From Rhodothermales bacterium (GTDB taxonomy: Bacteria > Bacteroidota > Rhodothermia > Rhodothermales > Bin80), in the NCBI GenBank assembly GCA_022820435.1, contig JAJEFL010000126.1, positions 4,419 to 68,418 on the forward strand: a DNA stretch of 64,000 bases, written 5' to 3'. The notes under the pieces are model-generated. The model was not told the origin of the DNA and ran no database searches. It saw only the letters and a program-made list of their open reading frames with translations. The position numbers were made by a program, and so were the translations under genes. Every line of letters begins with the position of its first letter. Within the stretch, counting starts at the first letter, position 1. Positions 5,058-37,981 of this stretch are shown here, in pieces.

Positions 5058-6479
5058 ATGGAACATCAGGCAAGCTTGCAACTCACCTCTTCAGGGGCAG
5101 ACTACTCTGCACATCAAAAAATTGGCTTAACCTTTATTGGTGTTGGCCTGTTGGCACTCCTGATTACCTTTCTGGGGGAGGGGGCACTGAATCCCGCGGT
5201 TACGCTTGCGCTTTCACTGGCGGGGCTGTTGGCGGGCAGCGGGATCCTTTTTGCCCGCATGCTTCATCAGCCGGCAGGGGTTAATAATAATGGTGTATGG
5301 TTTTCCGGAGCCACTGCCCGGGGAATGGCAGGATGGATCCTGGGGATTGTATTTACCGGGTTTTACATCCTCCTCTACTGGACTCCATCTAACCTGGAGC
5401 AGCTGATACGCGGCACGGATGCACTCAGTTATGCAATTCGGGGGAGCGCCGCCGATCAATGGTTTTTGTATGGACTCTTCTATACGCTTGCGGTTCTCGT
5501 GATGGGAACCCGGATGCTTATTAAGTACCGGGATAATCGCTATCAGATTTTGCGGACGATTTCAGTCATGTTTTTTCAATTGGGACTGGCCTTTCTGATC
5601 CCGAACCTGATGGTGCTTTTGAATCAGCCCGAGTTTTATTTCAGTTATTTCTGGCCGCTCAAGTACGATTATCTGTGGCCGAGTACGTTCAGTTCCCTGA
5701 CACAGGGCCCGGGCCTGGGGATTTTTCTGCTGTTCTGGACTGCGGTGATGACCGTTATTGCCACGCCGGTCCTGACCTATTTCTTTGGTAAGCGCTGGTA
5801 TTGTTCGTGGGTCTGCGGCTGCGGCGGACTTGCGGAGACGGCCGGAGATCCATTCCGGCATCTTTCGGACAAGTCTGCCAGAGCCTGGAAAATAGAGCGC
5901 TGGATGGTGCACAGTGTACTCGTGTTTGTGATCGTAACAACGCTGATGCTGTGGGGGAATCAGTGGATGGGGGGCGGTCTGCTGGGAGGGGTGTCGCAGG
6001 AGTTCTCCAGATGGTATGGATTTTTCATCGGGCTGATTTTTGCAGGTGTGATTGGAGTTGGATTTTATCCCGTCATGGGATCCCGTGTATGGTGCCGGTT
6101 TGGCTGCCCGATGGCCGCCGTCCTTGGCCTGTTACAGAAATATTTTTCCAGATTCAGGATCACCACCAACGGGGGGCAGTGCATTTCATGCGGGAACTGT
6201 TCCACCTATTGTGAAATGGGGATTGATGTGCGGTGGTATGCACAGAGGGGGCAGAATATTGTACGCGCCTCCTGTGTTGGATGCGGGATGTGTGCGACCG
6301 TGTGTCCCCGGGGGGTCCTGCGTTTGGAGAATGGGCCGCTGGAAGCCAGATATAATGGTCCGGTGCTGATTCACCATGATGACATGTCGGTGCAGCTGGA
6401 CGAGACATGGAAACAGTCCCGCCCGCTCATGCCGCCCGTTCAGGAGGATCTGCCCATTCTGACGGATGATGATCTTTGA
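5058..6479 (+). CDS. polytopic membrane 4Fe-4S ferredoxin-domain protein (NapH/MauN-like)
   Basis: Multiple hydrophobic segments. Cys clusters CSWVCGCG, WCRFGCP, CISCGNCSTYCEMG and CVGCGMCATVCPRG. It starts 7 nt after the upstream oxidoreductase. Confidence 0.75.
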   Translation: MEHQASLQLTSSGADYSAHQKIGLTFIGVGLLALLITFLGEGALNPAVTLALSLAGLLAGSGILFARMLHQPAGVNNNGVWFSGATARGMAGWILGIVFTGFYILLYWTPSNLEQLIRGTDALSYAIRGSAADQWFLYGLFYTLAVLVMGTRMLIKYRDNRYQILRTISVMFFQLGLAFLIPNLMVLLNQPEFYFSYFWPLKYDYLWPSTFSSLTQGPGLGIFLLFWTAVMTVIATPVLTYFFGKRWYCSWVCGCGGLAETAGDPFRHLSDKSARAWKIERWMVHSVLVFVIVTTLMLWGNQWMGGGLLGGVSQEFSRWYGFFIGLIFAGVIGVGFYPVMGSRVWCRFGCPMAAVLGLLQKYFSRFRITTNGGQCISCGNCSTYCEMGIDVRWYAQRGQNIVRASCVGCGMCATVCPRGVLRLENGPLEARYNGPVLIHHDDMSVQLDETWKQSRPLMPPVQEDLPILTDDDL

Positions 6480-32646: not shown

Positions 32647-32919
32647 AAGAAGTTATACAATAAATGGAAATGGATACGGAGTAGCCGATGCAGCGATATT
32701 TTCGTCGAAATTTGAGCGTCAAACGGTCTGTAGTCCTCTATGTTCCCAAACAAATTCTGAGTCTCCCGTGTTTATGTTTTTGAGGGTTCAAAGAATGACA
32801 TACGAATACAGATTAAGGTCGTAAACCCGGATTCTTCCGGTAGATTCGAGAGTATACGGATCTAGTCTGTGAAACGGACATGGAAGCTTCTCTGCTTCTG
32901 AATTGGGGTTCAATTGAGA

Positions 32920-33786
32920 ATGTTAGACGCAAAATTAATGTTAGGACAGGTGCTATCTGAACGGGCTTCAGCCAAAATCAATCTTGGGCTTCACATTATA
33001 CGCAGACGGCAGGACGGATACCACGATCTGGCAACAGTGTTTCATTCAATTGGATGGGCGGATAAGATCACGATATGTTCCGCGGAAGAAATCAGCATGA
33101 CCTGCACAGACGGAACGCTTTCATGTGGAGAGGATAATTTGGTGATTCGTGCTGCGAGACTTTTGCGGAAGATTGCAGATATAGATTATGGCGCGTCCTT
33201 CCATCTAGAGAAACTACTTCCGCACGGCGCGGGACTCGGGGGCGGATCCAGTGATGCTGCGACGGTGCTTCGAATGCTGTATAAACTCTGGGAGTTGGAG
33301 CAGAACGCCCGCCCACTGGATGCACTCGCACTGCAACTTGGTTCAGATGTACCGTTCTTTTTGCATGGAGGCACCGCCTATGCGGAGGGGAGAGGGGAAC
33401 GGCTGACTCCCATGAACGGGTATGTATTTCCATTTCATTTAGCGGTCATTGTGCCGAATATTCAGATTTCTACGGCATGGGCATTCCGGCAGTTAGATGT
33501 ATCCGGAGCGAATCGAATAAACCTCATAGAGGTGGTGCAATCCAATGATCTGGATCGCTGGATGCATGAGTTGGAGAATGATTTTGAGGGGCCGATATTT
33601 TCAAAATGGCCCGAAATAGAGGAAATCAAGTCCTCGCTGCTGCGCAGTGGAGCAGGGTTTGCATCTCTTACCGGGTCAGGTTCAGGAGTCTATGGTATAT
33701 TTGAGCATGAGGAAGATGCGAAGCAGGCGGCAGCAGAAGCTGCGGCAAAGGGATATGTGGTCTGGCCTGCCCAAGACGGGAGATGA
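32920..33786 (+). CDS. ispE: 4-(cytidine 5'-diphospho)-2-C-methyl-D-erythritol kinase
   Basis: AKINLGLHI and the GHMP kinase motif PHGAGLGGGSSDAA. The track ORF begins at TTG 32914; the ATG is at 32920. Confidence 0.9.
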   Translation: MLDAKLMLGQVLSERASAKINLGLHIIRRRQDGYHDLATVFHSIGWADKITICSAEEISMTCTDGTLSCGEDNLVIRAARLLRKIADIDYGASFHLEKLLPHGAGLGGGSSDAATVLRMLYKLWELEQNARPLDALALQLGSDVPFFLHGGTAYAEGRGERLTPMNGYVFPFHLAVIVPNIQISTAWAFRQLDVSGANRINLIEVVQSNDLDRWMHELENDFEGPIFSKWPEIEEIKSSLLRSGAGFASLTGSGSGVYGIFEHEEDAKQAAAEAAAKGYVVWPAQDGR

Positions 33787-34457
33787 TCAGTATCTCAAAC
33801 CATGCATGCAAACCACGGAAGCCATGGCCGCGAAACCGGGAGCATAGATGTGACTTCGGGAATCAGGGTAACGCGGGTTGGTAAGGTGGTCGCATGTACT
33901 GAAATCCGTCTTACCAGCAGGATTCAGGGATAGGTGGATGCAGGTATCCCTGGAGGTAGTGGCTTAATCCTGTTCAAGTCGACAACTAGAGGCAAAAATA
34001 GTCCGCCGGTATAGCAGATTCATGTCGGATGAGAAAAGAATCAACCGGCAGCTGCAGACAACATGGTTTCCCCAAGACAAAATCGGCACAGTCACATGCC
34101 AACCAGTGTACCGTTCCCAGGCAATCCTGTCCTGACTCTGACGGTTTGACAGCCGTCTATCGATGAAAACCTCCATTTCCAGTCTCTATAGACGGATGTT
34201 TTGTTTTTGTCCGTTTGAAGTATTCACTTTCATCGGGAATCCTGTTCTGCACATCTCCATTTGGTGGGTGACCGTTGAAATCAGGATCCTGTCTGCATCA
34301 TCCGCGGTGGGGACCAAAGGGTAGGAATTTCGAAATAGAGGTTTGACTTTTGGAATTCGTGCAATCGCCCTGAGCACGCACGAATAAAATTCCTATCTTT
34401 ACGGTATGAGAAATTTCAAGCAGGAAGCGAGTTGGAATCTGAAACAGAAACGGAGCG

Positions 34458-35609
34458 ATGATGAGCGCCGTCCCGGTTAAGCCAAAACTACTGATCTGGG
34501 CATGTGAACGTGCAGGAATCACGCAGGATGCCCTTGCAGTAAGATTTAAAAAGCTGCCCAAATGGGAACAGGGCAGTGCACGCCCCACCTTTAAGCAACT
34601 TGAGGCATTCGCCCGGGCTGTTCGTGTGCCATTTGGGCACCTGTTCCTTGATTCGCCTCCAGAGGAACGGCTTCCAATTCCAGATTTCCGAACTGTGCCG
34701 GAGAAGGAAAAAAGGGGGGATATGAGTCCAGATCTGATGGATACCATTCATGCGATGCTGCGGAGGCAGAGGTGGCTGCATGAATATCTTATTGGCCAGA
34801 AGGTTGAGCCGCTCTTCTTTGCAGGGAGTGCCCATCTGACCGATCCCCCTGATATGGTGGGGCGTGAAATGCGAAAAATCGTCGGCATGGGTGATGGGTG
34901 GGCGGCAACGGTGGCGAATCAGGATGTTGCAGTGAATCAGTTACGACGAATGATTGAGAAGATCGGTGTAATGGCAGTGATTAATGGTGTCGTAGGAAAT
35001 AATACGCACCGCCAACTAAAGGTAGAGGAATTTCGCGGCTTTGCACTTGCAGATCCCTATGCACCCTTGATATTCGTAAACGGTAGAGATGCAAAATCTG
35101 CTCAAATGTTTACACTTGCTCACGAACTGGCGCATATCTGGTTAGGGGAAGAGGGAATTTCCGGTTTTGAACATCTACTTCCAGATAGTAAGGGCATAGA
35201 AGCTTGGTGTAATCAGGCAGCTGCGGAGTTTCTTATGCCATCGTACGAGTTTTACAGGAAATGGAGGCAATTCAGACAGGAAAGAGTGCCTTATGAACCG
35301 TTAAAACAATTTTTCAAAGTGAGTCCAGTGGCGATAGCCCGCAGAGCGATGGACCTGGATCTTATTGATCGTGATCAATTTTTGGTTTTCTACCATTCCC
35401 AAACCAAACAACAGGGTCAGAGGAAAAGGATGTCAGGCGGCGATTTTTACAATAACCAGAATGTGCGCGTTGGCAAGCATTTTGTCACTCATATAATAAA
35501 TGCTGCAAAGGGAGGAGAGATTGGATTTAAAGAGGCTTACGACTTGACTGGACTCTACGGAGGAACATTTCAAACCTATGCCGAACGATTGGGGATACGT
35601 ATCCGCTGA
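34458..35609 (+). CDS. XRE-type HTH plus ImmA/IrrE (COG2856) zinc metallopeptidase
   Basis: N-terminal HTH-like segment (ITQDALAVRFKKLPKWEQGSARPTFKQLEAFA) and the HELAHIWL HExxH motif. Confidence 0.85.
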   Translation: MMSAVPVKPKLLIWACERAGITQDALAVRFKKLPKWEQGSARPTFKQLEAFARAVRVPFGHLFLDSPPEERLPIPDFRTVPEKEKRGDMSPDLMDTIHAMLRRQRWLHEYLIGQKVEPLFFAGSAHLTDPPDMVGREMRKIVGMGDGWAATVANQDVAVNQLRRMIEKIGVMAVINGVVGNNTHRQLKVEEFRGFALADPYAPLIFVNGRDAKSAQMFTLAHELAHIWLGEEGISGFEHLLPDSKGIEAWCNQAAAEFLMPSYEFYRKWRQFRQERVPYEPLKQFFKVSPVAIARRAMDLDLIDRDQFLVFYHSQTKQQGQRKRMSGGDFYNNQNVRVGKHFVTHIINAAKGGEIGFKEAYDLTGLYGGTFQTYAERLGIRIR

Positions 35610-36133
35610 TGAAAGATCAATTCTACATTGTGGATGCTGATGTTCTTATAACAGCCAAAAACAGGTACGATGCTTTTGATCTATGCCCAGGATTCTGGGA
35701 AAGCCTGATCTATCACCATCAAGCAGGTCGGATATACAGTATTACCCCGGTTCGTACAGAAGTGCTTGCCGGTCGACAAACCGAAGATCTTGTCCAATGG
35801 ATCAAAGGGGAAGTCCCCCAGGAATTCTTTTGGATTGTAGATGCGGAGAATATAATGGGGGCCTATAATGAGATTATGGAATGGGTGACAGGGCACGAAC
35901 GATATCACGACGAGGCAAAGACTGCTTTTTCTTCCACTGCAGATGTCTGACTTGCGGCATTTGCAAGAGTACACAATGCTATAGTTGTGACGAACGAGCA
36001 GTCTTCCCCAAAATCCAGGCGAGCAGTTAAGTTGCCGGATGTCTGTAATAAGTTCAATGTTGAGTGGATAGATACGTTCATGATGCTTCGATCACTCGGA
36101 GTAGAGTTTGGCATGAAGAGGGATGATTCATGA
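35609..36133 (+). pseudogene. DUF4411 (PIN-like) protein gene interrupted by in-frame TGA at 35948-35950
   Basis: The 113-aa ORF ends TADV*. The same frame continues stop-free for 60 codons (LAAFARVHNAIVVTNEQSSPKSRRAVKLPDVCNKFNVEWIDTFMMLRSLGVEF), which looks like the conserved DUF4411 C-terminus. The start overlaps the ImmA stop (TGATG). Confidence 0.7.
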
Positions 36134-36235
36134 CGACCATATCGGGGGGAATTCAAAATCATACTGAAAAGTATCGTTTGCAGTATCTGCCGAGATGCTG
36201 TCAGTACGAAAAGTAATCCCATAATTATCATTTTC

Positions 36236-37981
36236 ATGACCCGCACAATTTTCCTGCTGTCTGCTGTGATGCTGTTCGCATCCTGCAATTCCGAGCATCC
36301 CCCGAATGTAATCATTATCCTGACAGATGATCAGGGCTGGGGGGATTTATCCATCAACGGCAATACTAGTATCCAGACACCGAATATCGACCAGATTGCT
36401 CATTCGGGGGCCAGGTTTGAGAATTTTTATGTGAGCCCGGTCTGCTCTCCAACTCGTGCAGAACTTTTAACAGGGCGATATCATCCCCGCTCCGGCGTGC
36501 ATGGAACCAGTGCGGGGGCTGAGCGCCTGGATACGGATGAGATCCTGCTCTCACAGGTCTTTCAGGATGCAGGCTATACGACAGGGATCTTTGGGAAATG
36601 GCACAACGGCCAGCAGGGGCCATATCATCCCAATCACCGTGGATTTGATCATTTTTACGGATTCCCCTCGGGGCATTGGGGGCATTATTATTCACCGCCT
36701 CTTGAGGAAAATGGCGAGTTGGTGCAGGGAAGCGGATATTTACCGGATGATTTGACGGAGTCCGCCATGGAGTTTATGCGTACGCATGCCGAATCGCCAT
36801 TCCTCGTTTTTTTGCCCTACAACACACCGCATTCCCCCATGCAGGTGCCCGATGAGTGGTGGGATCAGGTGTCCGAACTCCAGCAATCGCATCATTCTCC
36901 AGAACAGGAAGATCTCCTCCATACACGGGCGGCCCTCGCCATGATGCTCAATATTGACTGGAACGTAGGCCGGGTCATAACACTTCTAGATGAGTTGTCG
37001 ATCACCGAGGAGACGATTGTGCTCTATTTTTCGGACAACGGCCCGAACGGGGCACGGTGGAACGCCGGCATGAAAGGCAGGAAAGGATCTACGGACGAAG
37101 GAGGGGTTCGATCTCCACTTCTAATGCAGTGGCCAGGTGTGATTGCCGGGGGAATGGTCATTCTGGATATCACGGCTGCGATTGATCTGATGCCGACGTT
37201 GGCGGAACTCAGCAGTATTGAACTCAAGATCAGTGATCCACTGGACGGGATCAGTTTTGCTCCGCTCCTCCAAGGTGACCGTAATTCTATGCCGGATCGA
37301 ATTCTTTTTTCCCATTGGAGGGGACGCACGAGTGTCAGGACACAAACCCATCGTCTGGGCCACTTGGGAGGGCTGTTTAATATTGTCAATGATCGGGAGC
37401 AGCGCGTAGATTTAGCGTCTGAGTATCCTGAGATTGTGGATTCTCTGGAGGAAGCAAAGGCACGTTGGATTCGTGAAGTAGTCCCGGAATTCTATGAAAA
37501 GCGTCCCTTTACGGTTGGCTTTGAAGATGAAAAAATTACCTGGCTTCCTGTACGGGATGCGACGGCATCGGAAGGGATTCAGCGATCCAACCGGTACCCC
37601 AATGACAGCTTCCTGAGCAACTGGACGAGTCTCCAGGATTCTATTTTATGGGATGCAGAGGTTTTGACATCTGGAGAATACAAAGCGACCCTGTATTGTA
37701 CGACAGCAGAAGGGGATGAGGGGGCGCAGATTGATCTGAGCTTTGGTGACAGTTCACTGCAGGCCGCAATAGCGGATGCACATGATCCCCCCGAATACGG
37801 AATGAACGAGGATCGTGTGTCGCGGATTGAATCGTATGTGAAGGATTTTCGGTTACTCGTACTGGGGACAATCTCGCTTGAAGCGGGGCATCATCCTCTT
37901 GTTCTGCAGGCAGTCAGCATCCCGGGAAAGGCGGTTGCCGATGTCCGGCTTCTGCAACTGGAACGGATCGAAGAACTGTAG
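36236..37981 (+). CDS. arylsulfatase-family sulfatase (Cys-type)
   Basis: Signal peptide/lipobox (LLSAVMLFASC), the sulfatase signature CSPTRAELLTGR and GKWH. Confidence 0.9.
   Translation: MTRTIFLLSAVMLFASCNSEHPPNVIIILTDDQGWGDLSINGNTSIQTPNIDQIAHSGARFENFYVSPVCSPTRAELLTGRYHPRSGVHGTSAGAERLDTDEILLSQVFQDAGYTTGIFGKWHNGQQGPYHPNHRGFDHFYGFPSGHWGHYYSPPLEENGELVQGSGYLPDDLTESAMEFMRTHAESPFLVFLPYNTPHSPMQVPDEWWDQVSELQQSHHSPEQEDLLHTRAALAMMLNIDWNVGRVITLLDELSITEETIVLYFSDNGPNGARWNAGMKGRKGSTDEGGVRSPLLMQWPGVIAGGMVILDITAAIDLMPTLAELSSIELKISDPLDGISFAPLLQGDRNSMPDRILFSHWRGRTSVRTQTHRLGHLGGLFNIVNDREQRVDLASEYPEIVDSLEEAKARWIREVVPEFYEKRPFTVGFEDEKITWLPVRDATASEGIQRSNRYPNDSFLSNWTSLQDSILWDAEVLTSGEYKATLYCTTAEGDEGAQIDLSFGDSSLQAAIADAHDPPEYGMNEDRVSRIESYVKDFRLLVLGTISLEAGHHPLVLQAVSIPGKAVADVRLLQLERIEEL

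Follow-up and report, generated by a model that had tools for sequence, protein, structure and literature searches.

The window, by which we mean the whole 64,000-nt stretch of DNA that was analysed, carries two adjacent genes: an intact gene for a fused HTH-ImmA/IrrE protein and, directly downstream, a DUF4411 PIN-like gene whose frame is interrupted by a single stop codon. The coordinates of these genes and of the features discussed below are collected in Table 1.

Table 1. Features of the ImmA-DUF4411 locus, in positions of the window
Feature	Position	Strand	Description or basis
HTH + ImmA/IrrE (Peptidase_M78) gene	34458-35609	+	intact, 383 aa; predicted regulator/antitoxin partner, RmrA-like
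HExxH motif (HELAH), ImmA residues 222-226	35121-35135	+	sequence reading
TGATG overlap of ImmA stop (TGA) and DUF4411 start (ATG)	35607-35611	+	one base in common; sequence and ORF coordinates
DUF4411 PIN-like gene, whole frame	35609-36133	+	single in-frame TGA at 35948-35950
DUF4411 gene, 5' two-thirds	35609-35950	+	113 codons and premature TGA; Pfam DUF4411 78.2 bits, E=7.9e-22, profile 1-104 of 159
GAT codon, Tyr21 to Asp	35669-35671	+	alignments and DNA comparison
Premature TGA in place of invariant Trp114 codon	35948-35950	+	next base C
DUF4411 gene, 3' third, untranslated	35951-36133	+	60 codons and original TGA stop (36131-36133), in frame; Pfam DUF4411 55.1 bits, E=1e-14, profile 108-159

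The upstream protein matches the Pfam profile Peptidase_M78 (E=1.9e-16) and, weakly, HTH_31 (E=0.0052). Its PADLOC matches are to RmrA (E=8.7e-16 for the best RmrA model) and CapP (E=4.4e-15), and its match to the NCBIfam spr1629 repressor/antitoxin model (E=1e-13) lies under the cut-off of that model. The gene is intact and overlaps the start of the DUF4411 gene, as had been read from the sequence, and a TGATG overlap of this kind is typical of translationally coupled toxin-antitoxin pairs. The pair is found at one chromosomal site, between ispE and a sulfatase gene, in 12 of 12 related contigs; the neighbouring genes are housekeeping genes (ispE, sulfatase, PBP1, polysaccharide export) and there is no defence island. 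We describe the locus as a chromosomal two-gene module in which a gene for an HTH-ImmA/IrrE zinc protease is probably coupled in translation to a gene for a DUF4411 PIN-like nuclease, with DUF4411 as the putative toxin and ImmA as its putative antitoxin.

The spacer that separates ispE from the ImmA gene (33787-34457, 671 bp) is 9-12% diverged between the two clades of related contigs described below, as against 5-6% in the flanking genes. Short ORFs and a single weak inverted repeat (34150-34163 / 34185-34198) are all that it holds, and a search upstream of ImmA for a sigma-70 promoter, a terminator and operator repeats gave nothing above chance.

This layout can be compared with that of known systems. 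The DUF4411.1 family belongs to the VapC-like part of the PIN superfamily and comprises potential toxins that are encoded downstream of fused DUF955(ImmA)-HTH genes and have four conserved acidic residues; it is a family without experimental function (Matelska et al. 2017, PMC5499597). The window gene likewise lies directly downstream of a fused HTH-DUF955 gene, as DUF4411.1 genes do in phyla other than Actinobacteria (PMC5499597). It further resembles the DUF4411 family in its full-length Pfam match through the stop, in the acidic positions that it encodes and in the VapC-like model of its ortholog, but departs from it in the interruption at the invariant Trp114 and in the replacement Y21D. 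The ImmA protease domain has been described as an antitoxin hub, a role confirmed in RosmerTA defence systems, and the ImmA/RmrA hub pairs with PIN-like domains too (Ernits et al. 2023, PMC10440598). With RosmerTA (RmrT/RmrA) the window pair shares the two-gene layout and the HTH and ImmA-type zinc-protease partner, reflected in the PADLOC RmrA match. It differs from RosmerTA in that its effector falls outside the RmrT models and its neighbours are housekeeping genes; a search with the intact ortholog P0001 gave 0 matches in PADLOC, RmrT toxin models included, and none in NCBIfam. On its sequence features, the module is of RosmerTA architecture ('HTH + DUF955 + PIN' type) but cannot be assigned to any of the known Rosmer systems.

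Family match and predicted fold of the interrupted gene

Translation of the whole frame agrees with the sequence-only reading of this DNA, in which 113 codons, the last of them encoding ...SSTADV, are followed by a TGA and then by 60 open codons up to a second TGA. That reading had taken the downstream peptide for a DUF4411 C-terminus and had proposed an HMM alignment as a check. Aligned with Pfam DUF4411 (PF14367), each part of the gene alone is matched by its own portion of the profile (Table 1), the C-terminal part included. When the two parts are joined via a Trp, the match rises to 150.9 bits (E=3.5e-44) and extends over profile positions 1-159, against a gathering threshold of 23.5 bits, and a weak PIN match appears too. 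The joined match is, at the level of sequence, far above chance. By these profile matches the gene is a member of the DUF4411 family by descent, with a product that is truncated at profile position 104.

The stop falls on a conserved Trp position, as had been supposed: the column holds Trp in 22 of 22 homologs in a 23-sequence alignment (motif A-D-G-W-L-V-A), and W114 is invariant in an alignment of 48 sequences. The window gene keeps 39 of the 40 invariant columns of the family, W114 being the sole violation, and the invariant residues encoded after the stop are all kept (L115, A117, A119, VVTNE 126-130, K141, P143, D144, C146, V151, L160, L163 and F167). Full-length family members do not end near residue 113, since the homologs are 166-183 aa long in the 119 others among the matches listed, the 113-aa product of the window being excluded from this count. 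A second departure from the family lies at column 21, where at least 90% of the members have Tyr and the window has Asp. This Y21D replacement predates the stop because the intact sister allele, found in contigs L014 and L015, has it too. The 113-aa truncated product is present in public data as protein P0002. As an annotation, a DUF4411 pseudogene (nonsense at Trp114) would describe 35609-36133 better than a 113-aa protein does.

The structural consequences of the stop can be judged from a model of the intact ortholog P0001, which is 89% identical to the window protein. The AlphaFold model (pLDDT 88.1, pTM 0.86) finds its best PDB matches among VapC PIN toxins (3h87, 6a7v and 5ecd; Foldseek probability 1.00), with Foldseek E-values from 2e-4 and TM-scores of 0.57-0.70 when normalised by target length. 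The model has the PIN-like alpha/beta/alpha fold expected for a DUF4411 ortholog. As in VapC of the VapBC type II systems (M. tuberculosis Rv0301, 3h87; Shigella VapC, 5ecd), a PIN fold is combined with acidic active-site positions. The DUF4411 protein differs from VapC in its low identity (12-15%), in its HTH-metalloprotease partner in place of a small VapB and in its length, which is greater by about 40 residues.

In the model of P0001 the stop position corresponds to the start of the helix formed by residues 111-122. The 113-aa product would be without this helix, without strand beta4 (125-127) with its invariant T-N-E, and without the helix that bears the P-D-x-C motif (142-148). It would also be without the last strand and the C-terminal helix, so that the final third of the PIN fold would be missing. 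The family-invariant acidic positions D9, E51, D112 and E130/D144 are all encoded by the gene. D9, D11, E51 and D112 are encoded by the 113 codons of the 5' part; E130 and D144 come after the stop and the product has three of the acidic positions. We infer that E130/D144 may supply the fourth catalytic position. Judged by the model, the 113-aa fragment is probably unable to form the PIN core, would be without the fourth acidic site and should be inactive as a nuclease.

A functional split gene, in which the 113-aa N-terminal fragment reassembles with a separately initiated C-terminal fragment into an active nuclease, could draw on an in-frame 48-aa ORF that begins at GTG 35987. However, initiation at this codon would drop residues 115-126, among them the invariant L115, A117, A119 and V126, and no such split occurs among the family members listed. 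Moreover, an intact allele exists one base away, which shows that the split did not arise as an evolved arrangement. We regard a functional split as very unlikely.

Codon 114 in related contigs

The flanking genes divide the related contigs into two clades, 5.5-6% apart, of which one holds the window, L008 and L007 and the other L009, L001, L002 and others. L008 (SAMN22237334) and L007 (SAMN22237335) are ENA metagenome scaffolds, each from its own sample; both carry the gene for P0002, and both have the TGA. Over 12,342 nt, L008 has 4 mismatches to the window and L007 has 47, and L007 therefore belongs to a distinct strain. These scaffolds bear on the option, raised from the sequence, that the stop is a sequencing or assembly error and that the true codon is TGG. 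An error of one base is the simplest kind there is, and the window does derive from metagenome-type data. Nevertheless, the TGA occurs in three separately assembled contigs (window, L008 and L007) from at least two samples, one carrier is of a different strain by its 47 other differences over 12.3 kb, and the site lies outside any homopolymer. We reject an error, which is hardly credible for a TGA common to three assemblies.

The four differences between the window and L008 over the 12.3 kb all lie in 46 bp of the ImmA gene (34955-35000, codons 166-181), and one of them is non-synonymous (K168R). Such clustering may stem from recombination over a short tract or from strains mixed in the consensus of the assembly.

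The polarity of the change follows from contigs that keep the Trp codon. The 90%-identity protein cluster of P0001 includes P0121, which is the window protein with Trp114. The gene for P0121, carried by L014 (GCA_022823545.1) and L015 (SAMN22237338), is identical to the window gene except at 2 of 525 nt, a synonymous position and the G/A that distinguishes TGG from the stop. Comparison of the loci in related strains, also proposed from the sequence, finds TGG at codon 114 in nine contigs (L014, L015, L009, L016, L012, L013, L001, L010 and L011), and TGG is ancestral because Trp is conserved family-wide. A single G-to-A transition turned the invariant Trp114 codon TGG into TGA, and the sister haplotype in L014 and L015 supports the one-base change that the sequence-only reading had proposed. 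On this evidence from aligned alleles, the lesion is a young one-base nonsense allele that segregates in a natural population. It has the marks of a recent unitary pseudogene, since the disabling change hits a conserved position, close relatives still carry an intact allele and the gene has otherwise decayed little. Among the options named from the sequence, a recent toxin-inactivating nonsense mutation is the one supported by the near-identical TGG allele and by the otherwise undamaged gene.

Around the module, L014 is a mosaic relative to the window (32914-37981). The two sequences nearly agree (0-2 mismatches per 250 nt) over ispE, the intergenic region and DUF4411. ImmA and the sulfatase gene, by contrast, are 4-5% diverged, with mismatches reaching 15-19 per 250 nt in the 5' two-thirds of the former and the 3' part of the latter. 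At the sequence level, this pattern indicates homologous recombination between lineages on the kilobase scale.

An in-frame stop at a conserved position with an open frame downstream could also be a sign of programmed recoding, with TGA read as selenocysteine or, under an alternative code, as Trp or Gly. TGA is, however, an ordinary stop in the window, where 16 of 37 long open frames end on it (that of the ImmA gene directly upstream among them), and the homolog column holds Trp rather than Cys or Sec. A tRNA scan of the 64-kb window found tRNA-Leu(GAG) alone, with no suppressor or Sec tRNA. The RNA fold of the 76 nt from the stop onward (z = -0.46 against shuffled sequences) contained no stimulatory structure and no SECIS-like hairpin, and an Rfam search around the stop returned no family at gathering score. 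Close relatives carry TGG. Stop usage, the tRNA scan, the RNA fold and the Rfam search all speak against an alternative genetic code or selenocysteine, which we reject, and recoding of this stop is extremely unlikely. A scan of JGI metagenomes with a pattern allowing TGG or TGA gave 0 matches.

TGA at codon 114 is confined to the window clade and to one decayed copy in L002. The L002 codon lies on the background of the other clade (GCC TGA, as against GTC TGA in the window), diagnostic sites as near as 3 nt on its upstream side and about 40 nt on its downstream side are those of the other clade, and all segments compared place L002 with the intact-allele clade. By these diagnostic sites, the L002 TGA would be either an independent event or the product of a very short conversion tract. 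Common descent of the TGA in the window clade and in L002 is unsupported, given the grouping with the other clade; a conversion tract would need to be shorter than about 45 bp. The chance of a second W114 event is ~0.1 (20 transition nonsense targets, two nonsense events in L002), and at this probability of coincidence the repetition is not remarkable. A Dcm-type (CCWGG) deamination hotspot can be rejected by reasoning: deamination of the methylated C would give TAG and not TGA, and the window sequence GTCTGG is without the site. The window lineage has a second homoplasy with L002 alongside the TGA, since Arg16 to Cys (CGT to TGT, 34503) in the HTH region of ImmA is found in the window, in L008 and in the distant L002, and is absent from L007.

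In E. coli, Trp-tRNA(Trp) competes with RF2 at UGA codons, and this competition is the source of read-through (PMC10570021). Trp insertion at the UGA of the window gene would yield the exact wild-type protein, and the allele could then be leaky, with low-level read-through restoring full-length nuclease and the allele being kept for a lower dose of toxin. The base after the stop is C, the 60 downstream codons are undamaged and codon 114 is TGA in a second lineage, L002, all of which fit such a leaky allele. C after the stop is reportedly the weakest UGA context in E. coli, a result ascribed to Poole et al. 1995; the context rules of E. coli may not apply to Rhodothermales. However, the stop is not conserved, nine related contigs having TGG, and the TGA copy in L002 is dead through an upstream TAA and a frameshift. 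The missing stable RNA structure and Rfam match downstream of the stop count against the leaky allele as well, an intact 3' part is to be expected anyway at so young an age (2 of 525 nt from the TGG allele), and the second W114 event can be put down to chance. We consider a leaky allele unlikely.

Lesions of the module in the species group

Both genes of the module are intact in L009 and L016, and the other related contigs carry lesions of several kinds. DUF4411 has the nonsense change Q63* (CAA to TAA) in L010 and L011. L002 has Q57* (TAA), a +1 insertion in a T run (frameshift) and W114* (TGA) in DUF4411, together with Q319* and a poly-C expansion in ImmA. The DUF4411 frame of L012 and L013 is open and has an extra Val, with G28E, Y86H and L115P at invariant columns. 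In L014 and L015 the DUF4411 frame is open and ImmA has Q216* (CAA to TAA) with an ATG directly after it, and in L001 a poly-C frameshift splits ImmA. Taken together, the lesions of DUF4411 amount to four independent stop-gains, a frameshift and an allele damaged by missense changes, and those of ImmA to two stop-gains and one poly-C frameshift. C:G to T:A transitions account for all six nonsense events.

These counts can be set against neutral expectations for eight haplotypes. DUF4411 has 4 stop-gains where about 2.6 are expected and ImmA has 2 against 4.2-4.8, as compared with 0 in ispE (2.6-4.0 expected) and 0 in the sulfatase gene (5.2-5.9 expected). By these sequence counts, stop-gains in the module would now arise about as often as under neutral evolution. 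The stop in the window is thus one case among several in which one or the other gene was knocked out independently, which leads us to propose that the module is being lost in the species group, through relaxed selection or through selection against it. The repeated knock-outs of the ImmA partner and of the toxin gene in related strains mean, as far as the alleles compared can tell, that the module as a whole is decaying and that the lesion in the window does not stand alone.

Pairwise comparison of the window with L009 gives dN/dS values of 0.24 for ImmA, 0.26 for the N part of DUF4411 and 0.37 for the C part. These values are low and the module has therefore been under purifying selection for most of its history. 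Such values do not date the gene loss, and residual function may be compatible with them; the 3' part has 7 substitutions relative to L009 and zero within the window clade, which are too few for a test of constraint.

Based on the above data, we propose that the predicted PIN-like toxin of a RosmerTA-like module has very probably been inactivated by a recent, segregating TGG to TGA change amid recurrent decay of the module. The stop is ordinary gene decay and involves no new mechanism. Toxin pseudogenes in degenerate chromosomal toxin-antitoxin modules are a general phenomenon, and the window locus resembles such modules in having one disabling toxin mutation beside a retained partner, with different lesions in related strains. 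Nothing essential sets it apart from them, except that an intact allele differing by one base and coming from one sample series makes the case unusually well documented. It provides a small and clean example of the loss of a chromosomal toxin/defence module, with an intact allele and a one-base null allele in one sample series.

A different interpretation of the same alleles, which we find quite unlikely, is that the module is under recurrent selection for inactivation in a wild Rhodothermales population and that the UGA-at-Trp allele is leaky and reduced in dose rather than null. It would draw on the four independent stop-gains within 522 nt of DUF4411, with codon 114 affected in two lineages, and on the separate knock-outs of ImmA. 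If this interpretation were true, the disrupted ImmA of L014 and L015 would suggest that ImmA is an activator or sensor and not a neutralising antitoxin. In these two contigs Q216* (window 35103-35105) immediately precedes Met217, and the adjoining DUF4411 frame is open and has Y21D. Such a combination should harm the cell if ImmA is a classical neutralising antitoxin; it would be explained by a toxin that has already been weakened, by ImmA pieces that still function or by ImmA being an activator. With this set of natural alleles one could examine whether the DUF4411 nuclease is neutralised or activated by ImmA.

A C run in ImmA also varies among the contigs. The C5 run of the window (34845-34849, codons 130-131) is C8 in L001 (about 5235-5245), where the resulting frameshift leads to a TGA followed by an ATG one base later and leaves ImmA in two pieces, of 132 aa (HTH) and 251 aa (protease). 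The same run is C10 in L002 and the frame is kept. The run could be a slippage-prone (phase-variable) tract or reflect a homopolymer assembly error. In L001, similarity to the window ends at DUF4411 codon 135, and the last 132 nt of this contig (6407-6538) are unlike the window and gave no match when compared with the other sequences of this analysis. This tail may be an insertion or rearrangement breakpoint, in which case the toxin gene of L001 would also be disrupted, or a chimeric contig end.

Partial matches with 47% identity, covering residues 111-155 only, lie at 4648-4770 of L005 and 4526-4648 of L006. These two contigs are assigned to a 'Bacteroidales' MAG and an 'archaeon' MAG from one horse-faeces study, and the two matches are equal. 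They may come from pieces of DUF4411 on an element common to both, or the contigs may have been cross-binned.
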